Assembly (NCBI GenBank): GCA_046757405.1
Contig: JBHHYE010000008.1
Location: forward strand, 1,944-65,943
Direction: 5' to 3'
DNA from: Acidobacteriota bacterium
Lineage (GTDB): Bacteria > Acidobacteriota > Polarisedimenticolia > SMYD01
DNA length: 64,000 nucleotides
Notes under the pieces: generated by a model
Seen by the model: only the letters and a program-made list of their open reading frames with translations
The model's database searches: none
Told to the model about the DNA's origin: nothing
Shown here: in pieces, positions 1,926 through 47,587 of the stretch
Layout of the letters: each line of letters opens with the position of its first letter
How positions within the stretch are numbered: the stretch's first letter is position 1
Position numbers and translations under genes: made by a program

Positions 1926-3221
1926 TCAAGATCGCGGCACCACCCGCGCCGGCCGATCCCCGAGCATCTCCGCCAGGGCCTCGGCCACCAGCCGGTTGGC
2001 CCGGGCCGTGGGATGCCCGTCGTCGCGCATGAAATCGGTCACCGGGATCCCTTCCCGGCGCGCCGCCTGGGTGAAGAGATCTCTGGTGTTGAGAACCGGG
2101 ACATGGCCCTGTTCCAGGACCCGGTCCAGGAGACGCTCCCGCCATCCGGCGGCCGGAGCGTCCAGCCGGGCCGCGAACGTCACGAACAGAAGCGGCAGGT
2201 CATGGTCGCGCGCCTCCTGGATGATGGCCTCCAGGAGCCGCCGGTTGAGGTCGATCTTCTCACGCCGGCGGTAGTCGAGCTCGTACATGTCGCCGCCGCC
2301 CGCCAGGATCCGCCAGCTCCGCAGCAGGTAAGCCAGCAGATAGCTCTTGAGGCGCGGCTGGTAGCGGGCCCGCCAGCGGGGAGAGTCTTCCTCCATGGGA
2401 GCCCCGTGCAGAACCAGCCGGCCGTCCTCGAGGACGAAGTACGGCTTGGGGCCGGTCCGGAAGGTCAGGACACTGCGGTCCAGGTCGGTGGCCATCACCC
2501 CGATGATGACGGTTGGTTTCTTGAATCGCGCGTGGGACAGCTTGAAACGCAGGTAGATCTGCCCCAGGCCGAACCCTCCCACGCCGTAGTTGAAGACCTG
2601 GAGGTCCGGCAGCAACCGGTCCAGGATCTGCGGGATGCGCGATTCCATCGGCACGGCGGATCCCGCCACGAACGAATCGCCGTAGAAGAGAACCGCTTGG
2701 GCGCCGGGATCGTACCGGTTCGGGACCGCGGCGGTGATCCCCAGGGGATTGTCCGCGGTTTCCGGTGGAGCCCAGCCCAGCATCGGATGGAAGCGCCCCA
2801 CCACGTTGTCTGATTGCTCCGGAAGCCATTTCTGGTGCAGGCGGAAATAGTCGCCGTCGGACAGGTAGTCGGCGTACAGGCCGGGCTGGCGGACCTTGGG
2901 CATCCCCAGGGCGATGCCGGCCCGGAGCCCCGCCTCGGCCAGGACCGGCGTGATGATGACGATGCTGGCCGCCATCAGGTTCAGGTTGGCCATGGCCTCG
3001 CGGCGGCGGAAGCGCAGGGTCACCAGTCCCCAGCCGGCCAGGAGCAAGCCGGCGCCCAGGAGGAGGCGCCGGCCCAGGGCGCCCCAGATCCGGTGCTCCG
3101 GAGCGATGAGTTGATGGATCAGGGGATCGCTGGCGGCCAGGAGCAGGCCAACCAGGAGATAAACGACGCCCAGCCCGGTCAGGACCTTGAGGCGGAGGGG
3201 CGGGGGAGACGGCGTCATCAT
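1926..3221 (-). CDS. SGNH/GDSL-family hydrolase, membrane-anchored (candidate polysaccharide O-acetyl esterase/transferase)
   Basis: 431-aa ORF with N-terminal hydrophobic segments. GDSL block I is FYGDSFVAG, block II-like is NYGVGG, and a C-terminal DDGHP supplies the catalytic Asp/His. It lies 10 nt downstream of the Wzx stop on the same strand. Confidence 0.7.
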   Translation of the reverse strand: MMTPSPPPLRLKVLTGLGVVYLLVGLLLAASDPLIHQLIAPEHRIWGALGRRLLLGAGLLLAGWGLVTLRFRRREAMANLNLMAASIVIITPVLAEAGLRAGIALGMPKVRQPGLYADYLSDGDYFRLHQKWLPEQSDNVVGRFHPMLGWAPPETADNPLGITAAVPNRYDPGAQAVLFYGDSFVAGSAVPMESRIPQILDRLLPDLQVFNYGVGGFGLGQIYLRFKLSHARFKKPTVIIGVMATDLDRSVLTFRTGPKPYFVLEDGRLVLHGAPMEEDSPRWRARYQPRLKSYLLAYLLRSWRILAGGGDMYELDYRRREKIDLNRRLLEAIIQEARDHDLPLLFVTFAARLDAPAAGWRERLLDRVLEQGHVPVLNTRDLFTQAARREGIPVTDFMRDDGHPTARANRLVAEALAEMLGDRPARVVPRS

Positions 3222-3231
3222 GGGAGGGTGC

Positions 3232-4707
3232 TCACGGCAGCCGCCGGAGAGCGCGGATCACCGGGAGCCGGGACAGGACAGTGCGGATCTTCTCTTTCTC
3301 CTCCTGCCGGAAGAAGCCGGAGAGCCACAATGCGGGAGGATACAGGAGCAGCAGGAGGAGCTTCGCGAGAAGACGCGCGGGCAGGGAAGGGAACGGAATC
3401 AGGAGCGAGCCCGCGCCGATGGCGGCCAGCAGAACGGCGGCCCGGGCGAGGCGGTTCCATTCCAGCCGCAGAGGGTAGAGCCGGCGGCTGACCAGGTAGA
3501 CGGCGGCGGGAACCAGGATGTAGGTGGCCAGGGTCGTGCCGGCCGCCGCCAGCATGCCGAACCTGGGGATGAGAAGCAGGTTCAGGGCGATGTTGGCACC
3601 GGCCCCTCCCAGGAACACCACCGAGAGAAGATGCATCCTGCCGGTGACATCGATCCCCAGCCCCAGAAGGGGGACCAGCCCGAAGAGAAAGTAAGCGAAC
3701 ACCGCCAGGGGAATCACACGATAGGCGGCGTGAAACTTGGGGTCGGCCACCAGAATGAGCTCCGGGGCGTAGATCGCCACCCCCGTGCAGAGATACCCGA
3801 TGCCGGCCGTGTAGTAGTTCACCAGCCGCTGGAAGAGAAGAGGCCCCTGGGGGGTCCGGGCCTCGGTGAAGAGAACCTTGGGGAAGGCAAACTTGAAGGC
3901 ATTGGTGAGGATGTAAACGCCCATGCCGAACTTGTACCCCAGGTTGTAGAGGCCGATCTCCGCACCGCTGCGGAAGATCCTGAGGATATAGATGTCGCTC
4001 AGGTTCATGGCCCACAGGGCCAGGGTGCTGGGAATGAGGGGAAGACCGTACCCCAGCAGGTCGCGGCAGATGCCGGCGGAGATTCCCCGGCGGAGCTGCC
4101 GCAAGCTCCAGGGAAGGAAGAGGGCGGCCATCACCGCCACGGAGGCCATGTTGGCGCTCATGGCGCCCCAGGCCCCCTGGCCCCGGCCCACCACCAGGTA
4201 AACGGCCAGGGCCAGGTTGAGGGCGAACGCCAGTAACGTGAAGATGGAGAAGCGGATCGACTGGTCCTGCATGCGGAAATGGGTGTTGCGGACCGCCTGG
4301 AAGATGTAGGCGAAGTTGAGCCAGGCGATGAGCACCACGAAGCCCACCTGCCGGTCCGATCCGAAGAGCCAGAAGGCCAGCGGCCGCCTGAGAACCAGGA
4401 GGAGCAGCAGAATGGCCGCGCCGGCGATCAAGAGGGCCGCTAGGCCGGTTCCCAGCACCTTGCGCTTCTCCTGGTCCGAGCGGGCCGTCAGGAGGTACGA
4501 GCGGAAGAGGGCGGTGGGGATCCCGGCCAGGCTGACGATTTTCAGGATCCCCACGGTGGCGGTGCACAGGGCCAGGACCCCGTAGTCGGCCGGGGTCAGG
4601 TACCGGGTGTAGACGGGAATGAGCAGGAATCCGAGCACCCGGGTGCCCAGGGAGCCGACGCCGTAGACCAGGGAATGCTTGCCCAGGCGGGCGATTTTTC
4701 GATACAC
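3232..4707 (-). CDS. wzx: Wzx-like oligosaccharide flippase / polysaccharide biosynthesis protein (MOP superfamily)
   Basis: Polytopic protein with 12 or more hydrophobic segments and the typical N-terminus YRKIARLGKHSLVYGVGSLGTRVLGFLLIPVYTRYLTPADYG. The track ORF extends to 4809. I place the start at GTG (forward 4705-4707), preceded by a GGGGGAAG RBS; an upstream ATG would overlap the divergent gene. Confidence 0.75.
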   Translation of the reverse strand: MYRKIARLGKHSLVYGVGSLGTRVLGFLLIPVYTRYLTPADYGVLALCTATVGILKIVSLAGIPTALFRSYLLTARSDQEKRKVLGTGLAALLIAGAAILLLLLVLRRPLAFWLFGSDRQVGFVVLIAWLNFAYIFQAVRNTHFRMQDQSIRFSIFTLLAFALNLALAVYLVVGRGQGAWGAMSANMASVAVMAALFLPWSLRQLRRGISAGICRDLLGYGLPLIPSTLALWAMNLSDIYILRIFRSGAEIGLYNLGYKFGMGVYILTNAFKFAFPKVLFTEARTPQGPLLFQRLVNYYTAGIGYLCTGVAIYAPELILVADPKFHAAYRVIPLAVFAYFLFGLVPLLGLGIDVTGRMHLLSVVFLGGAGANIALNLLLIPRFGMLAAAGTTLATYILVPAAVYLVSRRLYPLRLEWNRLARAAVLLAAIGAGSLLIPFPSLPARLLAKLLLLLLYPPALWLSGFFRQEEKEKIRTVLSRLPVIRALRRLP

Positions 4708-4868
4708 GGGCTTCCCCCGCCGGCCGCCCTCCTCCGGCCCATCCGGGGGGGGCGCGGGCGTGCTACTCCTGTGCCCGGCACAGTTTACAGGGTTTGACCC
4801 GGCGGACACCCTTGAAATGGTCCGGTTTGAGGGTATATATACGTGCGTCCATCCAGGGGGAATTCAAC

Positions 4869-5849
<981 letters not shown>

Positions 5850-5862
5850 CGGGAGGTTCCCT

Positions 5863-7677
5863 TTGCGAGCACTCGTCTCGTTCTTGGTGGCGCTGGGCGC
5901 TGCCTCCGCCCTGACGCCGCTGGTCATGGTGATGGCGCGCCGGAATGGGCTGGTCTCCCGTCCCCAGCCGGACCGCTGGCATTCCCGGGCGACGCCCCTC
6001 CTGGGAGGGGTGGCCATCTTTCTCTCCTTCATCTTCACGGCCGTCTTTCTGACTCCCTTCCATTCTCCTTCCCTTCGCCTGGGGTTCGCGGGAGTGCTCA
6101 TCGGCTCCACCGTCATGTTCTTCCTCGGGTTGCTGGACGATTTCATGCACCTGGGGGCGGCCACCAAGCTCATCGGCCAGGTGGTGGCGGCCTGTATCCT
6201 GGTTTATTGCGGCGTGTATTTCGATATTCTCGGCCGGCCCTTGCTGACCATTCCCTTGACCATCTTGTGGGTGGTGGGAATCACCAATGCCTTCAACCTC
6301 CTGGACAACATGGACGGCCTGGCATCGGGGATCGCAGCCATCTGCGCGCTCACCATCTTTGCCCTCAACCAGGTGCTGGGCATCGACCCCAGCCTCGGAC
6401 TGGTGGCGCTGAGCTTCGCGGGAGCCCTCCTGGGATTCCTGATCTTCAATTTTAACCCAGCCCGTATCTTCATGGGGGACAGCGGCTCGATGATGATCGG
6501 CTTCACGCTGGCCGGCCTCTCCATCGCCGGCACGTGGCATCAGGCTTCCAACGTTTTTCTCCTGCTCCTGGTCCCGGTCCTGATTCTCGGGGTGCCCATT
6601 TTCGATACGACCTTCGTCACGGTCACGCGGCACCTGCGCGGCCAGTCGATTGCCGTGGGGGGGCGGGACCACACATCCCACCGGCTCGTGGGGCTGGGGT
6701 TGAGCGAGAGACAGGCTGTCCTGATTCTCTACGGCATTTCCCTGGCGTTCGCGGTGATTGCGGTCCTGGCGTTGCGTTACAATGTCTTCATCGCCGGCAT
6801 CCTGGTGATCCTGCTGGCCACCGTCGCCCTGATCTTCGGGATGTTCCTGGGGCAATCCAGGCTCTCTCAAGAGGTGGCGCCTGCCGCGGCCGGGCCGGAG
6901 GGGAACGGGAAGGACGCCAGGCGCGGGTTCGTCCTGAACACCCTGGTGATGCACAAGCGCCGGATGGCGGAGGTCCTGATCGACCTGTGCCTGTTCGGGG
7001 TCGCCTTCGTGGCCGCCTATCTTCTGAGGTTTGAGGGCGCCATGCTTCCGCAAACAGAGCGCCTTCTTCTCTTTGCCCTGCCGATCGTCGTTCCGATCAA
7101 GCTGATCACCTTCTGGTCCTTCGGCCTCTACCGGCGGGTCTGGGATTTCATGGGGATCCACGACCTGGTGGTCATCACCAAGGCCGTCTTGACGTCCAGC
7201 CTGATCTGCATCATGGTCCTCTGGGGCCTGACCCGCCTGGAGACGTTCTCCCGCGCGGCCTTCCTGATGGACGGCATTCTTCTCCTCCTGCTCACCGCAG
7301 GGAGCCGCATCCTGTATCGTGTGTTCCAGGAGTCGTTTTTGGAGGAGTGTCCGGAAGGGAAACGGCTCCTCATCGTCGGGGCCGGGCAGGCGGGGGCGCT
7401 GGCCCTGCGCGAGATCCGCCGGAACCCGGCGCTGGGTTACCAGACGGTCGGTTTCCTGGATGATGATCCGGACAAGTGGGGCCGGAGGATCCAGGGTGCC
7501 CGCATCCTGGGAGGGCGCGACATGATCGCCAATCTCTCGTCCGAAGGGATCGACGAGATTCTGATCGCGATTCCCTCCCTTCCCCAGGACCAGCAGGCGG
7601 CCCTCGCTCAACTCTGTCGCGCCACCGGCAAGACCACGCGGATCATGCAGCGGGTCAGCAGCACCTTCCTTCATTGA
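5863..7677 (+). CDS. wecA: WecA/WbpL-family polyprenyl-phosphate HexNAc-1-phosphate transferase fused to a C-terminal TM + CoA_binding_3-like Rossmann domain
   Basis: MraY/WecA motifs NAFNLLDNMDGLASG and GDSGSMMIGF sit in the first ~350 aa. The extra ~240 aa carry TM helices then LLIVGAGQAGALALREIRRNPALGYQTVGFLDDDPDKWGRRIQGARILGG, which resembles the N-terminal NAD/CoA-binding-like domain of WbpM/CapD/WbaP-type proteins. Confidence 0.75.
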   Translation: MRALVSFLVALGAASALTPLVMVMARRNGLVSRPQPDRWHSRATPLLGGVAIFLSFIFTAVFLTPFHSPSLRLGFAGVLIGSTVMFFLGLLDDFMHLGAATKLIGQVVAACILVYCGVYFDILGRPLLTIPLTILWVVGITNAFNLLDNMDGLASGIAAICALTIFALNQVLGIDPSLGLVALSFAGALLGFLIFNFNPARIFMGDSGSMMIGFTLAGLSIAGTWHQASNVFLLLLVPVLILGVPIFDTTFVTVTRHLRGQSIAVGGRDHTSHRLVGLGLSERQAVLILYGISLAFAVIAVLALRYNVFIAGILVILLATVALIFGMFLGQSRLSQEVAPAAAGPEGNGKDARRGFVLNTLVMHKRRMAEVLIDLCLFGVAFVAAYLLRFEGAMLPQTERLLLFALPIVVPIKLITFWSFGLYRRVWDFMGIHDLVVITKAVLTSSLICIMVLWGLTRLETFSRAAFLMDGILLLLLTAGSRILYRVFQESFLEECPEGKRLLIVGAGQAGALALREIRRNPALGYQTVGFLDDDPDKWGRRIQGARILGGRDMIANLSSEGIDEILIAIPSLPQDQQAALAQLCRATGKTTRIMQRVSSTFLH

Positions 7678-9029
7678 TGGGCCGGACAGGCAAGTTGGCC
7701 CTCCTCCTGCTGGGCGGAGTTCTGGCAGCCGGCCAGGGGCTGATCTTCGCCCAGGGCGCGGACCAGGGGATCCCCCTGGGGAAGGGGATCTTCTACCCGG
7801 CCATCGCCATCGAGGGGGCCAGCGATGACAACCTGTTCCAGCAAGAGGATGACCGGATCTCGGTGAACTCCACGGCCATCGGCCCCGATCTGGAATGGCA
7901 TCTGCCGCTTTCCCGCAGCCTGCTCACCCTCATCTACAAGCCCCGCCTGCGTCGGTACGAGAATAACGTCATTCCCTCCACCACGTCGCACCGGTTCGAC
8001 GGCGAGTTTACCTTGGAGCTGCCCAGCGACACCCTCTTCACCGTCAAGGACAGTTTCGAGCGCGGAAACCTGGAGATCCGGGAGTTCACCGGGGGGGAGC
8101 CGACCTTCGGCGGCGACCGGTTCACGCGCAACGTCTACCAGGCCGGTTTCGAGATGCCGATCGGCCCGCGGCAGAAGGTGGAGATCGGGCTGTTCGGGGG
8201 GTCGACTCGGTTCGACGAGCTAGAGTCCGCCTCCTTCATCGACCTCTCGGACCAGGGTGTCCTGGCGAGCTGGTCCATCTCGCTGACCACGGAGCTGGAC
8301 TACCGGGTCGAGGCCCGGGGCTCCCGGGTGCGCGAGGATCGTCCCCCGGTGCGATTCCTCGATTTCCAGTCGCAGATGCCCATCCTGCTGCAAGATCTGG
8401 TGGCCGATCAGTTCGACCAGCGATCGATCCGGTCGGGTCTCGAGGGGCGCATCGGAAAGGTCCTGGAGACCCGCACCTTCCTGGGGTTCACCATCCAGGA
8501 TTTTGAGGATTCGGCGCAATCCGATTACCGGGGTCCGACCCTGGAGAGTGAGTGGAGACTGCGCCTGACATCCTCCCTGGGTGTTCGTGTGCTCGCCCGC
8601 CGCCAGCCGTTCGCTTCCGCCTTCAACGTCGCCAACTTCTTCGTCGCGGAGGACGCCAGCGCCTTCCTGGAGTGGCAGACGCCGCGCCGGCTGACAGTGA
8701 GCGTGGGGGGGAGCCGGCAGAAGAACAGCTACAAGGACCCCATCCAGACCAACCTGGACGGGAGCACCGCGACCGGGATCAACGCGGCGGGCGACGACAT
8801 TTTACCGGACCCTTCTACCGGTTTCGTAACCGGCGTCTTCCGCAAGGACCGCATCCGGCGGGTCGAGGGACGGGTGGAGTTCGCCTTCCGTCCGCACCGG
8901 CTCGCCGCCTTCGTGGAACTCATCGACGAGAGACGCGCCTCCAACATCACCTTCTCCCAGTTCAACCGCCGGGTGGTCCGTCTGGGGCTCCGTTTCGGGT
9001 GGTTCCGGTCGGGATCTGGTGGTATATAA
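7677..9029 (+). CDS. Outer-membrane beta-barrel protein (polysaccharide-export associated, uncharacterised)
   Basis: ATG 7677 overlaps the wecA stop (TGATG). Signal peptide MGRTGKLALLLLGGVLAAGQGLIFAQGA, alternating-hydrophobic beta-strand pattern, aromatic-rich C-terminal region (LGLRFGWF). It sits immediately upstream of wza. Confidence 0.55.
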   Translation: MGRTGKLALLLLGGVLAAGQGLIFAQGADQGIPLGKGIFYPAIAIEGASDDNLFQQEDDRISVNSTAIGPDLEWHLPLSRSLLTLIYKPRLRRYENNVIPSTTSHRFDGEFTLELPSDTLFTVKDSFERGNLEIREFTGGEPTFGGDRFTRNVYQAGFEMPIGPRQKVEIGLFGGSTRFDELESASFIDLSDQGVLASWSISLTTELDYRVEARGSRVREDRPPVRFLDFQSQMPILLQDLVADQFDQRSIRSGLEGRIGKVLETRTFLGFTIQDFEDSAQSDYRGPTLESEWRLRLTSSLGVRVLARRQPFASAFNVANFFVAEDASAFLEWQTPRRLTVSVGGSRQKNSYKDPIQTNLDGSTATGINAAGDDILPDPSTGFVTGVFRKDRIRRVEGRVEFAFRPHRLAAFVELIDERRASNITFSQFNRRVVRLGLRFGWFRSGSGGI

Positions 9030-9062
9030 TCATTCTCCAGATATCTGAATAGGTAGGTCGAG

Positions 9063-10214
9063 ATGACTCTTGGCAGGATGTGCCTGGTGGTGGCCACCGT
9101 TGCTGTCTGGGCGGGCGGGCCGGTCCCGGCCTGGGCGGGCCCGGGCGAAGACCAGGGCGCCGTGCCGGCCAGCCCGGTACTCCAGGTGTCGCACCATGCG
9201 GAGGGGGATCGGCAGGTGATCGAGATCCGCGGGCCCGGAGCCGGGCGGCACACGCTCGAGCGGCTCGGGAATGGCACGTTCGCCCTGCGCTTCGAGCGCG
9301 CGCGGTTGCCGGATCAGGCTCGGGCGGCCGTGGCTCCGTTGCGGTTCGGCACGGGGGATCCCCAGAGCCTGATCATTCCCGCCGGCCTGCGCCTGAGTAG
9401 CCTCCAGTCGGAGCCTTCCCTTCTGAGACTTGTGCTGGATCCCCTGACCGGCCCGGCCCCCGGGGAATACCGGCTCGGAGTGGGCGACAAGGTCCGCCTG
9501 AACATCTACGGAGATGACGAGTTCAAGAACAAGGAGATGCGCATCGTGGACGACGGCACCCTGTCCGTGCCTTATCTCGGCGCCGTCCAGATCGCGGGGC
9601 TCACTGTGACCGAGGCCGCCGCGGAGATTTCCCGGCGTCTCTCCGCCGGTTACCTGGTGGAGCCCAAGGTGGGCCTGGAGGTGGTGGAGTACCAGAGCCA
9701 GTGGGTCAACGTGTCAGGGCAGGTGGCGCGGCCCGGACGATACGTTCTCGAAGGCACGACCCGGCTCATGGACATCATCGCCCGCGCCGGAGGTCTGCGC
9801 AACGAAGCCGGCAACGAGATCCGGATCACTCGCCGGGAGACCGCGGGAGCCGGCCACCGGGTGATAGTCTTTGACCGAAACTCCCTGTACCAGGCGGACG
9901 GGCCGCATGAGAACCCGGTCCTGGAGAGCGGTGATACCATCACCGTTTCGCCGGAGGAATACTTCTTCATCAAGGGAGAGGTTCGTTCTCCCGGCCGTTA
10001 TCCTCTGGGAGCCCATACGACCATTCTCACGGCGATCTCCCTGGCCGGCGGGTTCGAGCAGTATGCCAACCAGAAGAAGATCGAGGTTCTGCGCAAGCAG
10101 GGAGACGAAACCATTCGCCTGGTGATCAACGTGGAGCGGATCGAGAACAGGAAAGACGATGATGTGCCGCTGTTGCCTGGAGACATCATCAATGTCAAGA
10201 CCCGCTTCCTCTGA
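9063..10214 (+). CDS. wza: Polysaccharide export protein Wza-like (Poly_export + SLBB domains) with N-terminal ~100-aa extension
   Basis: Signal peptide present. The core GDKVRLNIYGDDEF...LSVPYLGAVQIAGLTVTEAAAEISRRL...GQVARPGRYVL...LPGDIINV is typical of Wza/KpsD-like exporters. An unusual N-terminal region lies between the signal peptide and the Poly_export domain. Confidence 0.8.
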   Translation: MTLGRMCLVVATVAVWAGGPVPAWAGPGEDQGAVPASPVLQVSHHAEGDRQVIEIRGPGAGRHTLERLGNGTFALRFERARLPDQARAAVAPLRFGTGDPQSLIIPAGLRLSSLQSEPSLLRLVLDPLTGPAPGEYRLGVGDKVRLNIYGDDEFKNKEMRIVDDGTLSVPYLGAVQIAGLTVTEAAAEISRRLSAGYLVEPKVGLEVVEYQSQWVNVSGQVARPGRYVLEGTTRLMDIIARAGGLRNEAGNEIRITRRETAGAGHRVIVFDRNSLYQADGPHENPVLESGDTITVSPEEYFFIKGEVRSPGRYPLGAHTTILTAISLAGGFEQYANQKKIEVLRKQGDETIRLVINVERIENRKDDDVPLLPGDIINVKTRFL

Positions 10215-10232
10215 GGGAGCACGGAGTCCCGA

Positions 10233-12341
10233 ATGGAATTGACGAACGTGGCACAGAGTGATCGCCGGGAGGTGCACCTCCTCGAATACTGGCGGGTGAT
10301 CTGGTCGGGCAAGTGGACCATTGCCGCGGTCAGCGTGGTGGTCCTGGCGACGGTGGCCATCGCCACCTTTCTCCAGACTCCCGTCTACCGCGCCACGGTG
10401 CGGGTGGAGGTCTCCCCCCGCACCAAGAGTGTGGCTCCGGGGAGTGATTTCTCGCAGCTCGGGGCGGGCTGGGGCTGGCTCGCCGAGGAGCGGTACCTGA
10501 ACACCCAGCTCGAGATCCTCAAGAGCCGGGACCTGGCGGCGCGGGTGCTCCAGGATCTCGGGCTCGATCAGGTACCCGGCGCCCCCCGGGTCGGCGACCC
10601 GGTGGAAGCCCTGAGGAGCCGCATCGAGGTGGAGGCCATTCCGGACGCCAACATCCTGGAAATCAGCATGGAAGGAACCGATCCCGCGGAGATCCAGCGT
10701 CGTGTCAACACCCTGGCCCGAGTCTACGTGGACCGCAACGTGGAGATCGCGGTGGAGGCCACTTCCCGGACCCTGGACGAGCTTCTCCGCCAGATGCAGC
10801 CTCTGCGCGAAAAGATTCGCACCAGGGAGCACACCCTTCTCGCCATGGCCCGGGAGAAGAAGCTTTACATTCCCGAGAGCCAGACGACGACCATGGGCGA
10901 GCGGATCAGCCAGCTCCAGGCAGAGCTGACCAATGTCCAGATCGAACGCGGGAGGCTGGAGGCGGTCTTCCAGGAGATTTCCCGGCTGGAAAGCGAAGGG
11001 GGAGACTACCAGACCCTGCCCCAGGTGGCCGACGACGAGGCGGTCCAGGATCTCGATCGCCAGGCCAAGAGCCTGGAGAAGGACCTGGAGCGCATGTCGG
11101 TCTCCTATCTGGACAAGCATCCGAAGATGATCGAAGCGCGATCCCAGCTCGCGGAGATCCGGCGGAAGCTTGGACGGGAGATCGACCGGATCATTTCAAA
11201 GATCAAGGCCGAGCATTCCATCGCCCGGCAGAGGGAGCGCAACCTCGAGGAGCGTCTCACCCGGGCCAAGGAAGAATCTCTGGATCTGACCGTGGCCTCC
11301 ACCGACTACAAGATCCTCAAGTCGGAGATCCAGGAAGACAAGCGGATCTACGACCTGATTCTCTCCCGGATCAAGGAGATCGACCTGAATCAGGAAACCT
11401 TGAACAACAACATCAGGGTCCTCGATCAGGCGGTTCTGCCCACGGCCCCGGTGCGCCCCAGGAAGGCCCTCAATCTCCTGGCCGGCGGCCTCCTGGGGCT
11501 CCTCCTGGGCATGGGAACCGTGATCTTCATGGACTACCTGGACAACACCGTGAAATCGGCCGAGGATGTGGAACAGTACCTGGGGTTGCATATCCTGGCG
11601 GTGGTTCCCCGGAAGCGCAAGGACACCAGCAGCTCGGTGAAGGAGGCCTTCCAGACCCTGCGCACGTCGTTGCTGTTCTCCAGCAAGGCGCGCAGCCTGA
11701 ACACCTTGCTGGTCACCAGCGCCGGTCCCGGCGAGGGGAAAACCAGCACGGGGGTGGGCCTGGCCCGCAAGCTCGCCTCGGCCGGCGACCGGGTCATCCT
11801 CGTCGACGCGGATCTCCGCCGGCCCACGGTGCACACCCAGCTCGGCATCGAGAGGGGCGGCGGATTGACCAACTACCTGCTGTCCACCGAGGGAGGGCAG
11901 GCCTGGCTCCGGTACCTGAAGGAGATCCCGGCCGCACCCAACTTGAAGGCGATCACCTGCGGACCGATCCCCCCCAATCCGCCGGAGCTGTTCAGCACCG
12001 AGAAATTCATCGACCTGATGACCCAGTTGAAGAAAAACTTCGACTGGGTGGTCCTCGACTCTCCGCCGCTGGCGAGCCTCTCCGACTCGCTGGTTCTCGC
12101 ATCCCTGGTGGACATGGTCGCCCTGGTGATCAAGCACAACCAGAACGATCGGGATCTGATCAGACGATCCACGGTCAGCCTGAAAAAGATCAACGCCAAT
12201 ATCATCGGCGCGGTCCTCAACAATATCGACCTTTCCCGCAGCACCTACAAGGATTACTACTACGCCGGCTACTATTACTACGGCCGGGGCCGCGAGGAAG
12301 AAGACGTGGAAACGCCCGTGGAGGCGGGCGAGCGCGCGTGA
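10233..12341 (+). CDS. wzc: Polysaccharide co-polymerase / BY-tyrosine autokinase (Wzc-like)
   Basis: Wzz-type N-terminal region with two TM helices and a long coiled-coil periplasmic domain. The C-terminal P-loop kinase has Walker A SAGPGEGKTST, A' VILVDADLRRP and B VVLDSPP, ending in the Tyr cluster YKDYYYAGYYYYGRG. Confidence 0.85.
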   Translation: MELTNVAQSDRREVHLLEYWRVIWSGKWTIAAVSVVVLATVAIATFLQTPVYRATVRVEVSPRTKSVAPGSDFSQLGAGWGWLAEERYLNTQLEILKSRDLAARVLQDLGLDQVPGAPRVGDPVEALRSRIEVEAIPDANILEISMEGTDPAEIQRRVNTLARVYVDRNVEIAVEATSRTLDELLRQMQPLREKIRTREHTLLAMAREKKLYIPESQTTTMGERISQLQAELTNVQIERGRLEAVFQEISRLESEGGDYQTLPQVADDEAVQDLDRQAKSLEKDLERMSVSYLDKHPKMIEARSQLAEIRRKLGREIDRIISKIKAEHSIARQRERNLEERLTRAKEESLDLTVASTDYKILKSEIQEDKRIYDLILSRIKEIDLNQETLNNNIRVLDQAVLPTAPVRPRKALNLLAGGLLGLLLGMGTVIFMDYLDNTVKSAEDVEQYLGLHILAVVPRKRKDTSSSVKEAFQTLRTSLLFSSKARSLNTLLVTSAGPGEGKTSTGVGLARKLASAGDRVILVDADLRRPTVHTQLGIERGGGLTNYLLSTEGGQAWLRYLKEIPAAPNLKAITCGPIPPNPPELFSTEKFIDLMTQLKKNFDWVVLDSPPLASLSDSLVLASLVDMVALVIKHNQNDRDLIRRSTVSLKKINANIIGAVLNNIDLSRSTYKDYYYAGYYYYGRGREEEDVETPVEAGERA

Positions 12342-12769
12342 TCCCGGCGCCGGTGCGGTCGGTCCTGTGCCTGGCGGCCGCGGCCGCTCTTTCGTCCGGC
12401 TGTCAGAAGCCGGACCCCCTGGCCTGGAGTCTCGCCCAGCGCCGTCTGTACCAGGTGGCGGTGGTCACTTTCAGCCAGAGAGAGGGCGGGGATTACCTGG
12501 TGGAGCTGGAGGTCCGCACGCCGATGGGCGGGAAGCTGAAAACACTGACCGCCACGCTGCGCCAGCACGACGCGTCCCACGCCGTCCTGAGAGAAGACCG
12601 GGTGCCGCTGGATCTGACCCCCATGGATGCGACCGGGAGCTTGCGAGTCTATGCGCGGATTCCGGCCGCTAACGGGCCTGTGGATTCCCTGAGCGCCCTG
12701 GTCGAGCTCGATCCGCCGCGCTCCGACTACAATCAGTTTCCCGAGCTTGATGACCTGGTTGCTCATTAG
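12338..12769 (+). CDS. Hypothetical secreted protein / probable lipoprotein
   Basis: GTG start overlaps the wzc stop. Signal peptide with a Cys (LCLAAAAALSSGCQ). No recognisable domain. Confidence 0.5.
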   Translation: MIPAPVRSVLCLAAAAALSSGCQKPDPLAWSLAQRRLYQVAVVTFSQREGGDYLVELEVRTPMGGKLKTLTATLRQHDASHAVLREDRVPLDLTPMDATGSLRVYARIPAANGPVDSLSALVELDPPRSDYNQFPELDDLVAH

Positions 12770-12802
12770 CCCGGTGAAGTCGTAGGCGGGGCTCCCTTTT
12801 CC

Positions 12803-13468
12803 GTGGCTTCCGCTGCAGGACGCGCGTCAGGCCTTGGCGCACCGGTGATCTCCCTGGTCGCCGCCGGTTTCATCCGGCTGCTGAGATCCACCATGCGGCT
12901 GCGGCACCTGGGGCGCGAGGAGCTCGAGGAGCTGGAAGCGCAGGGCCGGGCCTGCATCCTCGCCTTCTGGCACGGGCGCTTTCTGATGATGCCGTATTGT
13001 TACCGGCGCGGGCGCATCACCATCTTGATCTCCCGGAACCGGGACGGGGAGCTGATTGCGCGCACCATGAGCTGGTTCGGTCATGACGCCACGCGGGGCT
13101 CGTCGTCCCGCGGCGGTGCGGCGGCGCTCAAGGAGGTGGTCAAGCGCCTCCGGGACGGCTGGGACGTGGCCTTCACACCGGACGGCCCCCGGGGACCCAG
13201 GTTCAGGGTTCAGCCGGGCGTCATCCAGGCGGCGCGGCTCAGCGGAGCCCCCATCATCCCCGTCGGCTTTTCGGCCCGGCCGGCCGTGAGCTTTCATTCG
13301 TGGGACCGGTTTCTCCTTCCCTTGCCGTTCTCGCGCGGGACCTTCTCCTACGGACGGTCGCTGGAGGTGCCACGCGATGCGGACGGGGCCCTCATGGAGC
13401 GGCTCCGGGTGGAGCTGGAGGCGCGCATGCGCGCTCTCAGCGGGCCCGCTGAAGGCTCCCCTGAATGA
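12803..13468 (+). CDS. DUF374-family lysophospholipid-acyltransferase-like protein
   Basis: ILAFWHGRFLMMPY...GELIARTMSWFGHDATRGSS.RGGAAALKE...DGPRGPRF.VQPG matches the DUF374/LPLAT-like family. Confidence 0.6.
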   Translation: MASAAGRASGLGAPVISLVAAGFIRLLRSTMRLRHLGREELEELEAQGRACILAFWHGRFLMMPYCYRRGRITILISRNRDGELIARTMSWFGHDATRGSSSRGGAAALKEVVKRLRDGWDVAFTPDGPRGPRFRVQPGVIQAARLSGAPIIPVGFSARPAVSFHSWDRFLLPLPFSRGTFSYGRSLEVPRDADGALMERLRVELEARMRALSGPAEGSPE

Positions 13469-13471
13469 GTC

Positions 13472-14845
13472 TCAGAACCGGCGGACCACGGCCCGGAACT
13501 TCCCGCGGCTCGTCCTGGCGATGGCGTCCACCGGGCGCACCAGGATCTCCACGGACGGCCCGAGGCGCTCGGCCAGTGCTCCGGCGAGAGCCGGCCCGGT
13601 GTCCGGTGCGAAGCCCGGTCCGGGCACGACCTTCATCACCACGCGGCCGGGCGTTTCCTGGATGATCTGAACCTCGTCGATTCCCCGCATTCCCTTGAAG
13701 ACCGGATCCAGCCGGCCCACCCGGCGGCCGTCGGGCAGGATGAGAAGATCGTCGGTCCGTCCGACCACCTTCTGGAGGACGGGATAAGGGCGGCCGCAGG
13801 CGCAGGTGCCGGAGCCGAGGGACACCGTGTCGCCGACCCGGAAGCGGATGAGCGGCATGGCCCGGTTCATGTAGCCCGTGGTGATCACTTCTCCGGTGGC
13901 CGCGCCGCCCCTGCCATCCGGGCCGAGGATCTCGGTGTAGGAGTATGCCGTATCCAGGTGGAGACAGCCCTGCCGGCAGTCCCCGGCAAAGATGCTCATC
14001 TCGGCATTTCCGTACTGGTTGAACACGGGGCAGTGGAAGGCGTCACGCAAGAGGCGCCGATCCTCCGGGACCAGGGTCTCGGCGCTCAGAAGGATGGCTC
14101 GGGGCCGGGGAAGGTCCTGTCCTGTCCGGAGGGCGAAGCGCGCCAGGGTGAGCAGCGCCGAGGGATAGGCCTGGATCTCCTCCGGCTGGAGCCGGAGCAG
14201 ATGGCGGATGTAGGCCGGCAGGGTGGCGGGGCTCATATGGTAAACGGAGAAGAGTGTGTTGTCCTGGGCCCAATCCCGGACCCAGAAGGGAGGGCGATGG
14301 CGGGCGGCCGGCCAGAGAACCCGCCCGTTGAAGGTGGCCCGCCGCCGCGCGCGGTGGGTTCCAGCCCAGATCCGGAACCGCTCGTAGTAAGCGTAGTGAA
14401 GCCGCAGCGACTCCAGATCGACCGGCACCGCCAGGGGAGAGCCGGTGGTGCCGGAGGTTTCCCGGACGGCCAGGGGGGGACGGACCGCGCGGCTGAGGAA
14501 CTGGCGGGGAGAGGAACGGACGGTGGCCTTGTCCAGGATTGGGATGTGCTCCAGGCCGGATGGGAGGGGCAGCGTCGCCGGGTCGATCCCTTCCTGGCGG
14601 AACAGGCGGCGGTAGAAAGGCACGTCCCGGCCGGCCCGCACCAGCGTCCGACGGAGCCGTTCCAGGGAGAGTTGCTCCAGGGCCTCCGGCGAGAGACGCT
14701 CCTCGGCCAGGACCGCCTGCAGGCGCCTGGCCACGCCGCCGCCGTACCGCCGGCGGTTGAGGCCCCATCCGTAGAGCGAGCACAGGATGTCCTTCAGGGG
14801 GCGGGGACTCTGGCGGAAGACCTGCTCGGAAAGGCGGGCACCCAC
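13472..14845 (-). CDS. Phenylacetate-CoA ligase-like adenylate-forming enzyme (CapK / F390-synthetase family)
   Basis: AMP-binding motif TSGTTGSP and PaaK-like architecture, as in capsule CapK proteins. Convergent with the DUF374 gene. Confidence 0.7.
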   Translation of the reverse strand: MGARLSEQVFRQSPRPLKDILCSLYGWGLNRRRYGGGVARRLQAVLAEERLSPEALEQLSLERLRRTLVRAGRDVPFYRRLFRQEGIDPATLPLPSGLEHIPILDKATVRSSPRQFLSRAVRPPLAVRETSGTTGSPLAVPVDLESLRLHYAYYERFRIWAGTHRARRRATFNGRVLWPAARHRPPFWVRDWAQDNTLFSVYHMSPATLPAYIRHLLRLQPEEIQAYPSALLTLARFALRTGQDLPRPRAILLSAETLVPEDRRLLRDAFHCPVFNQYGNAEMSIFAGDCRQGCLHLDTAYSYTEILGPDGRGGAATGEVITTGYMNRAMPLIRFRVGDTVSLGSGTCACGRPYPVLQKVVGRTDDLLILPDGRRVGRLDPVFKGMRGIDEVQIIQETPGRVVMKVVPGPGFAPDTGPALAGALAERLGPSVEILVRPVDAIARTSRGKFRAVVRRF

Positions 14846-14902
14846 CTGCGCAGTATAGGTCTTTCTTGACCTGGTGGTGGGGGGTCGCTACGATCATCTG
14901 TC

Positions 14903-15478
14903 ATGCCGATCCGCGAGATCCCATCCGATGCGCTCCGGTCGGAGCCCGGCGGTTCCGAGGCCGCCGGGTTCAAGCACCTGATGTTCACCACCCGTGTCCA
15001 GGATCTGGTCAACTGGTCGCGAAAAAACTCGCTCTGGCCCATGCCCCTGGGGCTCGCCTGCTGCGCCATCGAGATGATGGCCACGGTGGCGCCCCGGTAC
15101 GACCTGGCCCGCTTCGGCGCCGAGGCCATGCGTTTCACGCCGCGCCAGTGCGATCTGATGATCGTGGCCGGGACGCTGACCAAGAAGATGGCGGGACCGG
15201 CGCGCAAGGTTTATGACCAGATGCCGAGTCCCAAGTGGGTGATCGCCATGGGAGCGTGTGCGTCCACCGGAGGAATGTACGGCACCTATTCCACGGTCCA
15301 GGGGTGCGACTGCATCTTCCCGGTGGATGTCTACATCCCGGGCTGCCCTCCCCGGCCCGAGGCGCTGATCCATGGGGTCATGGCGATCCAGCGCCAGATC
15401 GGCGAGGGACGGCCCAGCGCCGCGGAACGCTCGGAGGCGGCGATGGAAGCCGCCATGGCCCGTCCTTCCTCCCGCTGA
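14903..15478 (+). CDS. nuoB: NADH-quinone oxidoreductase subunit B (NuoB / 20-kDa PSST), orphan copy
   Basis: Near-canonical NuoB core [17 protein letters not shown]...[42 protein letters not shown]...[17 protein letters not shown], with all four N2-cluster Cys. No other nuo genes are adjacent. The start may instead be the internal ATG at ~14981 ([12 protein letters not shown]). Confidence 0.85.
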
Positions 15479-15491
15479 CCGGGGGGCCGGG

Positions 15492-16685
15492 ATGGTTCAT
15501 CGGCCCGCTCCTCCCGATCATCCTGGAGAGCCCGGGCTGGTGGCGATCATCCTGCAGGAGATCCGAGAGAGCGGACCGCTGCCGTTTTCCCGGTTCCAGG
15601 ATCTGGCGCTCTACCACCCGGAGTTTGGTTACTACAGCCGCGGCGCCGGCCCCGGGCGCGGGGAAGGCGATTTTCTCACCGCGCCGGAGATATCGGCCGG
15701 CTTCGGCGAGCTGGTGGGCGTCCAGGTGGCCGAGATGGCCGGGAAGCTGGGCCATCCCCCCGATTTTCAGGTCGTGGAGTGCGGCGGCGGGCGGGGCTCG
15801 CTGGCGGCCTCCCTCCTGGACTCCTGGAAGCGTTCCCGGGCGCCGCTCTACCGCCCGGCCGTCTATCACCTGGTGGAACGGAGCGCCGCCCTCGAGGAGG
15901 AGCAGCGCAGGGCGCTGGCGGGCCATGGCGATGTTGTGGTGTGGGACGCCGCCCGGGAGGACGGCCCCGGCAGGAGCTCGAGCCGGCCGCCCGGAGTGAT
16001 CCTCATGAACGAGGTCCTTGACGCGCTTCCCGTGGACCGGATCGTGCGGGGCCGGGACGGCCTGGAGGAGATCTGCGTGGGGGTCCGGGATGGGCGGCTG
16101 GTGGAGGTCCGGCAACCGCTGCGGGAGGATCTCATGCGGGAGGTTTCCGCCTGCCTGCCCGCAGGGTGCGGCAGCCTGGCGCCCGGGCAGCAGGTGGAGA
16201 TCCGCCCTGGTCTGGCCCGGTTTCTGCGCCAGGCCGCGGCCCGCATCGGCAGAGGTTACCTGCTGGTGATCGATTACGGCCTGCCGGCGGCGGAGCTTTA
16301 CGGAGCCCGAAGAAAGCAGGGGACTCTGCTCGCCTACTTTCAGCATCAGGCCACGGAAGACCTCCTGTCCCGGGTGGGATGGCAGGATCTCACGGCCCAT
16401 GTGGATCTGACCCGCCTGACCCGGGCGGCGGCGGAGCTGCGGTTCCGGCGGGCGGGCGAGACGACCCAGATGCGTTTTCTCCTGGCCCTGGGCCTGGGGA
16501 CCCGGATCGAGACGCTGGCGGCCGGGGAGCAATCGCCGGCCCGGGTCCGGGAGCGGGTCGATCTGACCGCCCTCATCCGGCCGGGCGGAATGGGGGATCT
16601 GTTCCGTGTCTGGATCGGCGCGCGGCAGGCCTCGGCGGAGGTGGCGGGCCTGCGCGAGCCGGATCTGCCGTCTTCACAGCAGTGA
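15492..16685 (+). CDS. NDUFAF7/MidA-family (DUF185, Methyltransf_28) SAM-dependent methyltransferase
   Basis: GDFLTAPEISAGFGELVG...FQVVECGGGRGSL aligns with the GDFITSPEISQIFGELLG...FQLVELGPGRGTL region of NDUFAF7. The track ORF starts at 15372 inside nuoB; I place the start at ATG 15492. Confidence 0.7.
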   Translation: MVHRPAPPDHPGEPGLVAIILQEIRESGPLPFSRFQDLALYHPEFGYYSRGAGPGRGEGDFLTAPEISAGFGELVGVQVAEMAGKLGHPPDFQVVECGGGRGSLAASLLDSWKRSRAPLYRPAVYHLVERSAALEEEQRRALAGHGDVVVWDAAREDGPGRSSSRPPGVILMNEVLDALPVDRIVRGRDGLEEICVGVRDGRLVEVRQPLREDLMREVSACLPAGCGSLAPGQQVEIRPGLARFLRQAAARIGRGYLLVIDYGLPAAELYGARRKQGTLLAYFQHQATEDLLSRVGWQDLTAHVDLTRLTRAAAELRFRRAGETTQMRFLLALGLGTRIETLAAGEQSPARVRERVDLTALIRPGGMGDLFRVWIGARQASAEVAGLREPDLPSSQQ

Positions 16686-30018: not shown

Positions 30019-30093
30019 TGGGGCGTCGACAAGTGGTAAGTCACCGGTCTTTGGAACCGGCCATCGGAGGTTCGAATCCTCCCGCCCCAGCCA
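30019..30093 (+). tRNA. tRNA-Gln (anticodon UUG), CCA encoded
   Basis: TGGGGCGTCGACAAGTGGTAAGTCACCGGTCTTTGGAACCGGCCATCGGAGGTTCGAATCCTCCCGCCCCAGCCA. Cloverleaf with 7-bp acceptor (TGGGGCG/CGCCCCA), anticodon stem CCGGT/ACCGG, loop CTTTGGA (anticodon TTG), T-arm GGAGG-TTCGAATC-CCTCC. Closely parallels E. coli tRNA-Gln. Confidence 0.9.
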
Positions 30094-38765: not shown

Positions 38766-38905
38766 GGAAGCTCCTTTCTCAGGGACACGATAAGCACTCC
38801 AGATGTTAGCATCTCCTATCCGGGCGGACTGGACGGAAGGGAATGTCCGGCCGGCCTGGAAGCGTTGAAGGGATCCATGGTGGACCTGATGTCGGGTGCC
38901 TGGTC

Positions 38906-39838
38906 ATGAGAGAGAAGAGATGGCTGGGTGTCGCCTTGGGTGCGGCGGTGTTGCTGGGCGCGCTGCTGGGCGCTGCGCCTCCCCGGCAGACGGAGCGCCA
39001 TCGCCACCCGCCCCTCGAGTGGCGGGTGGCGGAAGGCGTGGAGGGCCTCGAGCCGGCCGCGCCGGTGCGGGTGCTGGTGGCCGACAGCATTCCGATCAGT
39101 GCCGTGAACGAGAGGTACGGCTTGGTGCAATCGGTGGTGTACCTGTATCACCACCGGCAGCCCGGCGCCGACCGGATCGATGGGGTGGCGCAGCGCTCCG
39201 GCTTGACGTTGACGCGGGCCGGGCCGGAGACCCAGGATCCGGTTCTTTCCGGCGAGATGCGCGTGAGCCTGGAGATCCCGGGAATGGAAGACGACGACTA
39301 TGCGGTGGGCATCTTTCTGGGGCGTCCCGTGAAGGTCAACGGCGTGCCCGAGACCCGGGTGGACGGCGTGGAGTCCGACACCATCCAGCCCGGGGCTTTG
39401 CGGGTGGACCAGGATGATCTCGAAGATCGGAGGAGGTGGGCCCCCGACACGCTCATTCTTCCCGGTCAAGAACGGATCGTCTGGGAGGGCACCTTGCCTC
39501 TCCGCGTGGACCGCATTTACGCGGATTACCTGGCCATCCGGGCCGGGAGCCGGAACGGTTCGTCCGCGCCCGAGCGGAGGGGTGTCCGCCTGGACACACC
39601 GGAAGGCGGAATCCTGGACATCCCTCCCACCTTGACGCCGAAGAGCGGCCTCGAGAGACTGGTCAGCACGGGTGTCGCGGTGGTGCGCCCGGAGGGTGCC
39701 CGGCTCCGCTCCATCAAGCTTCTCCAGGGCCATCTCAATCTGATCCGGATCGAGGCGGCCTTGGATGCCACCGGCGGGTACGGGATCGAGGTGACTCTGG
39801 AAACCGAGCCCCTGCCGCCGCCGGGAGAAGGACTCTAG
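38906..39838 (+). CDS. Hypothetical secreted protein
   Basis: Signal peptide MREKRWLGVALGAAVLLGALLGAAPP; balanced composition rich in D/E/V/L. Preferred over the antisense Arg/His/Pro-rich 400-aa ORF at 38816-40018. Confidence 0.5.
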   Translation: MREKRWLGVALGAAVLLGALLGAAPPRQTERHRHPPLEWRVAEGVEGLEPAAPVRVLVADSIPISAVNERYGLVQSVVYLYHHRQPGADRIDGVAQRSGLTLTRAGPETQDPVLSGEMRVSLEIPGMEDDDYAVGIFLGRPVKVNGVPETRVDGVESDTIQPGALRVDQDDLEDRRRWAPDTLILPGQERIVWEGTLPLRVDRIYADYLAIRAGSRNGSSAPERRGVRLDTPEGGILDIPPTLTPKSGLERLVSTGVAVVRPEGARLRSIKLLQGHLNLIRIEAALDATGGYGIEVTLETEPLPPPGEGL

Positions 39839-45369: not shown

Positions 45370-45530
45370 GTCGTTCCGCCTGGATCGCCATGGGGACCAT
45401 CCTGGTCCTGGTGTGGGGGGGGTTCGCGGCCGCCGTGGGGCTGGCGATTTCGTACGAACGGAGAAAACATGAAAACCGCGCCCCGCGGACCTGTCCTCCC
45501 GGGCCGCCCGTTCCAGGGAAAGGGAGCTGA
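45366..45530 (+). CDS. Small single-TM protein between the NSS transporters (candidate MetS-like small subunit)
   Basis: 54 aa: MSRSAWIAMGTILVLVWGGFAAAVGLAISYERRKHEN.... Its ATG overlaps the stop of NSS copy 1 (ATGA) and its TGA overlaps the ATG of copy 2 (TGATG). Confidence 0.45.
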   Translation: MSRSAWIAMGTILVLVWGGFAAAVGLAISYERRKHENRAPRTCPPGPPVPGKGS

Positions 45531-46939: not shown

Positions 46940-47447
46940 TGGCCCCGTCTGGCTGATTGGCTTTCCGGGGGCCGGAAAGACCACCGTGGGCCGGCTGCTG
47001 GCTCGCTTGCTCGAGCGTCCCTTCGTCGACCTCGATACCCTCATCGAGGAGCAGGCGGGCTGTAGCATCGCACTCCTCTTTTCCCGGGAGGGCGAAGAGC
47101 AGTTCCGTCGGCACGAGATGCGGGCGGTGGCCGGCATCGTCCAGGGGAAAGGCCCGTCTCCGGTGGTGGCGTGCGGCGGCGGCCTGGTGAGCCGCAAGGC
47201 CAACCGGGAGCGGCTGGCGGCTTCCGGTCCCGTGTTCTGGCTGGATGTTCCGTGGGAAGAGGCGGCCCGGCGTTGCGCCCTCCAGGCCTCCCCCAGACCG
47301 TTGCTCGGCGACCCGGCCGCATTCCGCCGGCGTCTCCCGCGGCGCCTGTTCCACTACCGCGCCCTGGGGAGGCGGGTCGATGCGCGCCTGCCTCCCGGGG
47401 AGATTGCCGGACGGATCATGGAACTGCTCCAGCATCCTGGCGATTGA
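46923..47447 (+). CDS. aroK: Shikimate kinase
   Basis: P-loop LIGFPGAGKTTVGRLLA and the shikimate-binding region. GTG start overlaps the end of NSS copy 2. Confidence 0.8.
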   Translation: MSSPPDGPVWLIGFPGAGKTTVGRLLARLLERPFVDLDTLIEEQAGCSIALLFSREGEEQFRRHEMRAVAGIVQGKGPSPVVACGGGLVSRKANRERLAASGPVFWLDVPWEEAARRCALQASPRPLLGDPAAFRRRLPRRLFHYRALGRRVDARLPPGEIAGRIMELLQHPGD

Positions 47448-47571: not shown

Positions 47572-47587
47572 TCACCCTCCGGCCGGC

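Follow-up and report, generated by a model that had tools for sequence, protein, structure and literature searches.

A detached nuoB gene followed by a MidA/NDUFAF7-family methyltransferase gene in an Acidobacteriota bacterium: a probable maturation unit for the N2 site of complex I

Why would a bacterium keep the gene of one complex I subunit by itself, directly ahead of a gene for a methyltransferase? This question is raised by a stretch of 64,000 nucleotides from an Acidobacteriota bacterium (contig JBHHYE010000008.1, positions 1,944 to 65,943; the whole of it is called the window below), in which nuoB is followed on the same strand by midA, coding for an S-adenosylmethionine (SAM)-dependent methyltransferase of the family of mitochondrial NDUFAF7. 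As suggested by our comparative analysis, the two genes form an operon for maturation of the cluster N2/quinone site of complex I, a reading to which we assign a probability of roughly 0.7. It is carried by the gene identities, the operon-like arrangement, the conservation of the pair in relatives and the correlation of MidA linkage with the state of an arginine switch beside N2.

Identity and arrangement of the two genes

The pair and its proposed promoter comprise the following features:

14903..15478, plus strand: nuoB, coding for the NuoB/Nqo6/PSST/NDUFS7 subunit that carries [4Fe-4S] cluster N2; 191 aa (profile, PDB and tblastn matches)
15059..15064, plus strand: codons of tandem Cys53-Cys54, N2 ligands (sequence reading; invariant in the alignment of relatives)
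15173..15175, plus strand: codon of Thr91, the NuoB residue of the arginine switch between the subunits (equivalent in alignment to Thermus Nqo6 Arg83 and to Yarrowia NDUFS7 Thr122)
15257..15259, plus strand: codon of Cys119, N2 ligand, in GACAS (sequence reading and alignments)
15344..15346, plus strand: codon of Cys148, N2 ligand, in PGCPPRPE (sequence reading and alignments)
15492..16685, plus strand: midA, SAM-dependent methyltransferase of the MidA/NDUFAF7 family (PF02636, COG1565); 397 aa (profile and PDB matches)
15777..15797, plus strand: codons of MidA residues 96-102 (E-C-G-G-G-R-G), SAM-binding motif I (aligned to 1zkd and 5ztz)
14866..14894, plus strand: sigma-70-like promoter candidate (TTGACC, 17-nt spacer, TACGAT; consensus match only)

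The product of the window nuoB is a true NuoB of complex I in which none of the four N2 cysteines is missing. The protein exceeded the cut-offs of Pfam Oxidored_q6 (PF01058; 1.6e-27, 96.2 bits, cut-off 27), of NCBIfam nuoB_fam TIGR01957 (225.8 bits, cut-off 142.7) and of PRK06411 (234.3 bits, cut-off 116), and fell under the high cut-offs that the lineage-specific NuoB equivalog models PRK14813-14820 set for themselves. Its closest solved counterpart is Thermus Nqo6 (PDB 2fug/4hea, 205 bits), with whose ligand motifs Cys53, Cys54, Cys119 and Cys148 align, the N2 ligands being identical; matches to NDUFS7 reached ~196-199 bits, and those to the small subunits of group 4 [NiFe], Mbh, Mrp-type and Hyc enzymes 107 (6u8y_J), 104 (MbhJ) and 92 (HycG) bits. 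A hydrogenase small subunit, considered as another identity for this protein, was rejected on the profile and PDB scores. The tandem cysteine motif, and likewise all three cysteine ligand motifs together, are kept in 120/120 top NuoB homologues. As the first 26 residues are partly conserved in the alignment of relatives, ATG 14903 is favoured as the start over Met27, which is used in the NCBI annotation.

The protein encoded by midA matched the Methyltransf_28 profile (PF02636) with 8.8e-54 and 183 bits (cut-off 23.3) over profile positions 1-242 of 249, and, in the PDB, the bacterial DUF185 structures 1zkd (2.8e-38) and 4f3n (9e-35) and Dictyostelium MidA 5ztz (3e-20) in alignments that span ~350-365 residues each, nearly the full length. 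SAM motif I reads VECGGGRGSL in the window protein, VEMGPGRGTL in 5ztz and VEIGPGRG in 1zkd, and the conserved F-x-T-A/S-P-E-x-S segment is represented by FLTAPEIS, aligned with FITAPEVS. On these sequence matches the family assignments of both nuoB and midA are secure. The start of midA is most likely ATG 15492, judging by its position 13 nt past the nuoB stop and by the G-rich ribosome-binding stretch ahead of it; GTG 15540, which agrees with the 381-aa protein P0001, is a second possible start. ATG 15372, which opens the longest open reading frame (ORF), was rejected, as it would impose a 107-nt overlap with nuoB and 40 extra residues that find no support in homologues. The stop codon ends at 16685, where the earlier note on this DNA had also placed the end of the locus. 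In relatives the spacing between the two genes ranges from a 4-nt overlap up to a 127-nt gap.

The promoter candidate lies in the 57-nt spacer between a divergent CapK/PaaK-like gene and nuoB, one site having been found against 0.2 expected from shuffles. Its -10 element stops 8 nt short of ATG 14903, and the nuoB mRNA may therefore be leaderless or very short-leadered.

A search with NuoA-K references across the 64-kb window (tblastn) returned NuoB as the sole nuo match, and Pfam scans of the other large window ORFs revealed no nuo genes. The earlier note, a reading of the sequence letters, had described a complete NuoB with four N2 cysteines, standing without nuoA, nuoC or nuoD nearby and followed immediately by a co-oriented NDUFAF7/MidA homologue; this description was borne out by the profile scores and cysteine alignment, by the two scans and by the PF02636 match across a 13-nt gap, respectively.

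Conservation of the pair and the arginine switch

The earlier note had named conservation of the pair in relatives beforehand as a test of a functional association, and in 8/8 looked-up relatives with a NuoB at least 70% identical to that of the window nuoB is followed by MidA. None of nuoA, nuoC, nuoD and nuoH was found in the fetched flanks of these eight. Within the close clade NuoB is 72-79% identical over the full-length alignment (76-84% by BLASTP), and MidA, at 51-58%, is well below it. Two of these loci (L001, with NuoB 84% and MidA 56% identical to the window proteins, and L167, with 82% and 57-58%) have in common the order nuoB-MidA-citrate synthase-MutS. The contig of P0011 holds a CapK-like gene, nuoB, MidA and a GT4 glycosyltransferase gene as in the window, and that of P0127 the Wza/Wzc/DUF374 neighbourhood of the window, with a 381-aa gene past nuoB that is cut by the contig end and whose family was not scanned. 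In five further loci (L164-166, L168 and L169; NuoB 70-77% identical) MidA directly follows nuoB, in L164 with a 4-nt overlap, those four nuo genes are missing from up to 10 kb of flank, and the surroundings differ: L164-166 and L169 are flanked by lipoate and 2-oxoacid dehydrogenase genes, a radical SAM gene and DUF2203, and L168 presents a third context with Rieske fragments and dodecin. Pairs of nuoB and MidA thus occur in at least three unrelated flanking contexts, and as judged from these gene orders their adjacency is far beyond chance. Being kept together amid changing surroundings, the pair behaves as a selected unit.

Linkage of MidA to complex I genes extends beyond this clade. It was surveyed in two samples, 80 NuoB loci from reference genomes and 80 MidA loci from metagenomes; all counts from them hold among the matches listed, where the best NuoB match was 72% and the best MidA match 41% identical, the closest clade not being among them, and where the 80 MidA were 30-41% identical to that of the window. 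The counts include related sequences and correspond to roughly 6-7 independent lineages with four gene arrangements. MidA was adjacent in 4/80 reference-genome NuoB loci: a Nitrospiraceae metagenome-assembled genome (MAG) with the order secA-MidA-nuoA-B-CD-E-F-G-H-I-J-K (L052), two Acidobacteriota loci of the 11-subunit type lacking nuoEFG with MidA-nuoA-B-C-D-H-I-J-K (L030, L075), and an Acidobacteriota contig with nuoB-nuoI-nuoB-MidA-Rieske (L006). Co-oriented nuo genes abutted MidA in 9/80 metagenome MidA loci, or in 7/35 when the count is restricted to loci with 1.5 kb or more of flank on each side. Six of the nine (L085, L086, L092, L094, L095, L098) have MidA upstream of nuoA-G, the same arrangement as in the Nitrospiraceae MAG, and in three (L116, L137, L152) MidA stands between nuoB and nuoC (nuoA-nuoB-MidA-nuoC-nuoD-nuoH...), which repeats the nuoB-to-MidA order of the window. 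In the distance tree of MidA the nuo-linked genes fall into at least five separate lineages; the neighbour-joining (NJ) trees of NuoB and MidA are distance trees from short alignments, carry no support values and serve solely to show that nuo-linked MidAs are scattered over several lineages. MidA recurs, apparently independently, in or beside the nuo operons of Acidobacteriota, of a Nitrospiraceae MAG and of similar metagenome loci.

When the ORFs within 2.5 kb of the 80 MidA loci were clustered, nothing recurred across lineages except nuo genes. Other conserved MidA neighbours, such as a ribosomal gene, were considered and rejected, the only candidates being Macro-domain and Peptidase_M1 genes inside one syntenic clade; this group makes up ~30 of the sampled MidA loci, with the Macro-domain gene upstream and Peptidase_M1 downstream. 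In a clade whose MidA is not nuo-linked (L002 9732-10004, L003 3-281) an ORF of ~90 aa that has no Pfam match overlaps the MidA start. The MidA of L075 was recovered in two tblastn pieces (8376-8918 and 8989-9372), which may be due to a frameshift or a misassembly or may mark a pseudogene.

The position at which MidA-linked complex I enzymes differ from the others lies beside cluster N2. An arginine adjacent to N2 sits either on NuoB or on NuoD, an arrangement described as an intersubunit residue switch: in Thermus, NuoD has Thr at its position and Arg83 of Nqo6 fills the same space, and in Yarrowia the NuoB switch position of NDUFS7 is held by Thr122 (PMC8042128). The NDUFS2 arginine is located 3.7 Å from N2 at the NDUFS2/NDUFS7 interface, and the authors suggested that it acts as a 'key/lock' joining the two subunits in assembly (PMC8042128). 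In our alignment search, made before this literature was known to us, NuoBs with different states of the partner NuoD were told apart best by the column of window residue 91, which coincides with the published switch position.

In the first tabulation Thr occupied the switch position in 17/17 MidA-adjacent NuoBs, as it did in six further pairs outside that tabulation; Arg occupied it in 7/7 orphan NuoBs that have no MidA, and none of the orphans of Thermus-like Arg type (0/7) stands beside MidA. On the partner subunit, Arg was present at the position of NDUFS2 Arg85 in 9/9 MidA-linked NuoDs, and the NuoDs of unlinked operons had 17 Arg, 36 Thr and 5 Ser (MidA linkage against NuoD Arg, Fisher p=7e-5; 0.011 when collapsed to four lineages). 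Operons with NuoD Thr or Ser had NuoB Arg (39) or Trp (2), and those with NuoD Arg had NuoB Thr (12), Trp (4) or Arg (1). The reciprocal pattern, NuoB-R/NuoD-T against NuoB-T/NuoD-R, was found in 57/67 typed operons; the deviating operons are, except for one, Trp or Ser variants. In the genome sample alone, among the matches listed, MidA adjoined 5/21 Thr-type NuoBs and 0/61 others (p=7e-4), and Thr-type NuoBs were paired 21 times with an Arg-type NuoD and never (0) with a Thr-type one. Thus, MidA linkage tracks the NuoB-Thr/NuoD-Arg state exactly. The NuoB of the window, 60-64% identical to operon-encoded NuoBs, clusters in the NJ tree with the NuoBs of Arg-type nuo operons. Unlike Thermus Nqo6, it has Thr91, and its partner NuoD should therefore supply the N2 arginine. 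The conserved association between complex I and MidA that the earlier note proposed is strongly supported by the pair in relatives, by the linkage to nuo operons elsewhere and by the tracking of the switch state, and in the neighbourhood survey over the 80 loci nuo genes were the only MidA neighbours that recurred across lineages.

A third switch state, tryptophan (IVAG-W), was observed in Balneolales/Rhodothermia-like and Sumerlaeia loci, combined with NuoD Arg in L025, L026, L041 and L081 and with NuoD Ser in L063 and L068. We know of no description of such a NuoB variant.

The sampled Acidobacteriota loci comprise 14-subunit operons (NuoB-Arg/NuoD-Thr), 11-subunit operons (NuoB-Thr/NuoD-Arg), orphan Arg-type nuoB genes and nuoB-nuoI pairs. 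With several kinds of complex I gene sets in the phylum, a second or alternative complex I in the source genome is plausible on the gene content of these loci. In Armatimonadota, Acidobacteriota, Verrucomicrobiota, Planctomycetota and Latescibacterota, detached nuoB-nuoI pairs (Arg-type in L019, L029, L043, L055, L065 and L072; Thr-type in L010 and L045) are common, as are solitary nuoB genes that have no further nuo gene within 10 kb (L013, L058, L064, L069, L077, L083). The orphan nuoB of L014 (10010-10462) is located 8 kb from a full nuoA-B-C-D-H operon and is there an extra copy.

Near the pair, relatives repeatedly have genes for Rieske [2Fe-2S] proteins, often accompanied by genes for NuoI-like or CCG/Fer4 proteins:

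L006, 11807-12184: Rieske gene directly after MidA
L168, 9256-9563: Rieske gene in two fragments directly before nuoB
L164, 15769-16543: Rieske and Fer4 genes, 6-10 kb downstream of the pair
L169, 17955-20543: Rieske and Fer4 genes, 6-10 kb downstream of the pair

This recurrence may be accidental or may hint at an additional redox partner; in the 64-kb window, neither Rieske nor NuoI-like genes were found.

Proposed role of the pair and competing explanations

We propose that nuoB and midA constitute a two-gene operon that would supply two parts for building the N2/quinone-reduction site in a complex I; the remaining genes of that enzyme would be located elsewhere in the genome. NuoB would bring cluster N2 and, in place of the arginine that packs against N2, Thr91; the arginine beside N2 would come from the HRGxE motif of NuoD. 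MidA, using SAM, would dimethylate this NuoD arginine, after which the methylated NuoD would dock on NuoB, and the N2 site would be complete. By being transcribed together, the two genes would yield NuoB in step with the enzyme preparing its partner NuoD. What MidA acts on, how it modifies it and what it does in assembly are inferred from eukaryotic and Paracoccus precedents, NuoD being the probable target because its arginine is the residue that is dimethylated in mitochondria and in Paracoccus.

Mitochondrial NDUFAF7 symmetrically dimethylates Arg85 of NDUFS2 in the HRGxE motif, and both the methylation and a role in assembly have been demonstrated (PMC3829151). The enzyme belongs to the same family (PF02636) as the window MidA, with SAM motif I conserved, and the NuoB counterpart NDUFS7/PSST likewise has Thr at the switch position. 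In eukaryotes the genes of NDUFAF7 and its partner are nuclear and unlinked, whereas midA is apparently co-transcribed with nuoB here, in a bacterium outside the Proteobacteria where methylation, demonstrated in eukaryotes (PMC3829151), is inferred. In Paracoccus denitrificans Arg65 of Nqo4, the HRGxE arginine, is a symmetric dimethylarginine (PMC3750175), which makes this organism the sole bacterial case with chemical evidence; MidA is the putative methyltransferase responsible. Paracoccus is an alphaproteobacterium with a canonical nuo/nqo cluster, unlike the detached nuoB of the window. To our knowledge, no operon link between midA and nqo6 has been reported there.

The general idea that MidA acts on bacterial NuoD is already published, and the novelty implied by the earlier note is accordingly smaller, given Paracoccus Nqo4 (PMC3750175), a prediction for MidA and NuoD (PMC9006661) and Ca. 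Actinomarina (bioRxiv 10.1101/2021.02.01.429150). A review that cites Shahul Hameed et al. 2018 gives the prediction, made on structural and bioinformatic grounds, that bacterial MidA methylates the NuoD of alphaproteobacteria (PMC9006661). In Ca. Actinomarina a NDUFAF7 gene located after the 11-subunit nuo operon was read as an assembly accessory (bioRxiv 10.1101/2021.02.01.429150). That gene follows nuoN, which closes a complete operon in Actinobacteria, whereas the window gene follows a detached nuoB; some of the Acidobacteriota operons described here share with it the 11-subunit type lacking nuoEFG, and the correlation with the switch state is absent from that report. Within the literature searched, three findings appear to be new: that Acidobacteriota conserve a detached module of nuoB and midA, that MidA-nuo linkage is broad and varied beyond the Proteobacteria, and that this linkage is restricted exactly to the NuoB-Thr/NuoD-Arg state.

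Several points weigh against the proposed role. Thr91 favours an Arg-type NuoD in the source genome, which is a prediction from NuoB and not an observation. Some 80-90% of the sampled MidA genes, among the matches listed, do not adjoin nuo genes, and no intrinsic terminator was found past midA. The NuoB of E. coli also has Thr at the switch position. Its NuoCD Arg249 is unmodified (PMC3750175), and since this Arg-type NuoD works unmethylated, the Arg type can do without MidA and the correlation is evidence of a necessary type and not of a sufficient one. Finally, according to a 2025 paper the function of prokaryotic MidA has been inferred in silico only (PMC12455994).

A bolder version of the proposal, in which the pair is a separately regulated cassette that switches the cell between two versions of the N2 site, is conceivable because the phylum encodes both NuoB-Arg/NuoD-Thr and NuoB-Thr/NuoD-Arg complex I; we regard it as unlikely. 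If it were true, the Thr-type NuoB and the methylase would build or convert, depending on conditions, a complex I whose N2 lies in a methyl-arginine surrounding and whose N2 potential or quinone preference is therefore different, and methylation of arginine in complex I would be a regulatory device that is old and widespread among bacteria, not a proteobacterial/mitochondrial invention.

It is clearly unlikely that MidA serves complex I by modifying NuoB or another subunit of the Q module instead of NuoD. Neither in the window clade nor in the nuoA-nuoB-MidA-nuoC arrangement, indeed, does nuoD adjoin midA; in both this place is taken by nuoB. NuoB also has conserved arginines, one of which is hydroxylated in mammalian PSST (PMC3750175). 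However, Arg85 of NDUFS2/NuoD is the substrate in the characterised systems (PMC3829151), MidA linkage goes with a NuoD that has Arg and a NuoB that lacks it at the switch position, and in Nitrospiraceae-type loci and in L030 and L075 MidA is placed ahead of nuoA and not beside nuoB; with NuoB as substrate the switch correlation would be left unexplained.

Distinctly improbable, too, is a detached NuoB working in a non-canonical oxidoreductase, with a NuoI-like ferredoxin/Rieske or a hydrogenase-like partner, that MidA would mature. Such a module would agree with the finding of no other nuo gene in the fetched flanks of any clade member and with the Rieske and NuoI-like Fer4 genes near the pair in L006, L168, L164 and L169, but these genes have no counterpart in the window, and the window protein exceeds NuoB subfamily cut-offs, is as close to operon NuoBs as stated above and groups with those of Arg-type operons. 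The hydrogenase-like module that the earlier note had envisaged is disfavoured by the same scores, 205 bits for Nqo6 against ~92-107 for the Mbh, Mrp-type and Hyc subunits.

A MidA role unrelated to complex I, whether in DNA methylation, which has been proposed for Wolbachia MidA, or on some other protein, with a meaningless nuoB adjacency, is very improbable. Preliminary DNA methylation was described in E. coli expressing Wolbachia MidA (PMC12455994), and most MidA genes among the matches listed are not beside nuo genes. Against this role, the adjacency holds over the unrelated flanking contexts, at least four different MidA-nuo arrangements occur in several MidA lineages, no other MidA neighbour recurs outside single syntenic clades, and the adjacency is confined to the NuoB-Thr/NuoD-Arg class, a correlation that DNA methylation leaves unexplained.

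A reading of the detached nuoB as a duplicate that is redundant or in decay is barely credible: extra nuoB copies are common (the orphan of L014 near a full operon, the two nuoB of L006, orphans of other Acidobacteriota), but a window-type nuoB that is more conserved (76-84%) than the adjacent MidA (51-58%) and keeps its cysteine motifs in 120/120 homologues is not decaying, and its GC content at third codon positions (GC3) of 0.86 is typical of the coding sequence of the source genome.

The confinement of MidA-nuo linkage to enzymes in which the N2 arginine is missing from NuoB and provided by NuoD is specific comparative evidence for NuoD arginine methylation as a bacterial trait beyond the Proteobacteria, and it yields a simple sequence rule, NuoB AG-T against AG-R, to predict which complex I enzymes are methylated. 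The function expected for MidA is thereby strengthened, and current views are not overturned.

Surroundings of the pair in the window

The window is a high-GC (~65%) chromosomal stretch, and the genes that flank nuoB-midA have no evident respiratory link. Downstream of midA a GT4 glycosyltransferase, citrate synthase and MutS are encoded, all on the opposite strand. Upstream of nuoB are an exopolysaccharide/capsule cluster, a DUF374 gene and the divergent CapK/PaaK-like ligase. The cluster is large (window 1926-14845) and reaches directly to nuoB; it holds genes for a GDSL hydrolase, a Wzx-like flippase, an epimerase/dehydratase and a Glycos_transf_4 + CoA_binding_3 priming transferase, and the following:

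9063-10214: Wza
10233-12341: Wzc
12803-13468: DUF374
13472-14845, minus strand: CapK/PaaK-like adenylate-forming enzyme

No ORF was called in the 1.4-kb stretch 7678-9062. Farther downstream, a set of genes resembling those of a type IV pilus or type II secretion system was located at 50212-57876, where the local GC content falls to ~0.59 (52-56 kb of the window):

50212-52254: PilB-like ATPase
53436-54638: PilC-like platform protein
54752-56446: PilS-like histidine kinase
56416-57876: sigma-54 PilR-like regulator

Two tandem paralogues of the SNF family (sodium:neurotransmitter symporter) are encoded at 43918-46939, and two sizeable ORFs, of 571 aa (47245-48960, with a lower GC3 of 0.73) and 331 aa (38843-39838), have no Pfam match. 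The RNA genes detected in the 64 kb amount to a single tRNA-Gln (TTG) at 30019-30093, which sits upstream of a prs-L25-pth-H+-PPase-S6-L9 stretch.

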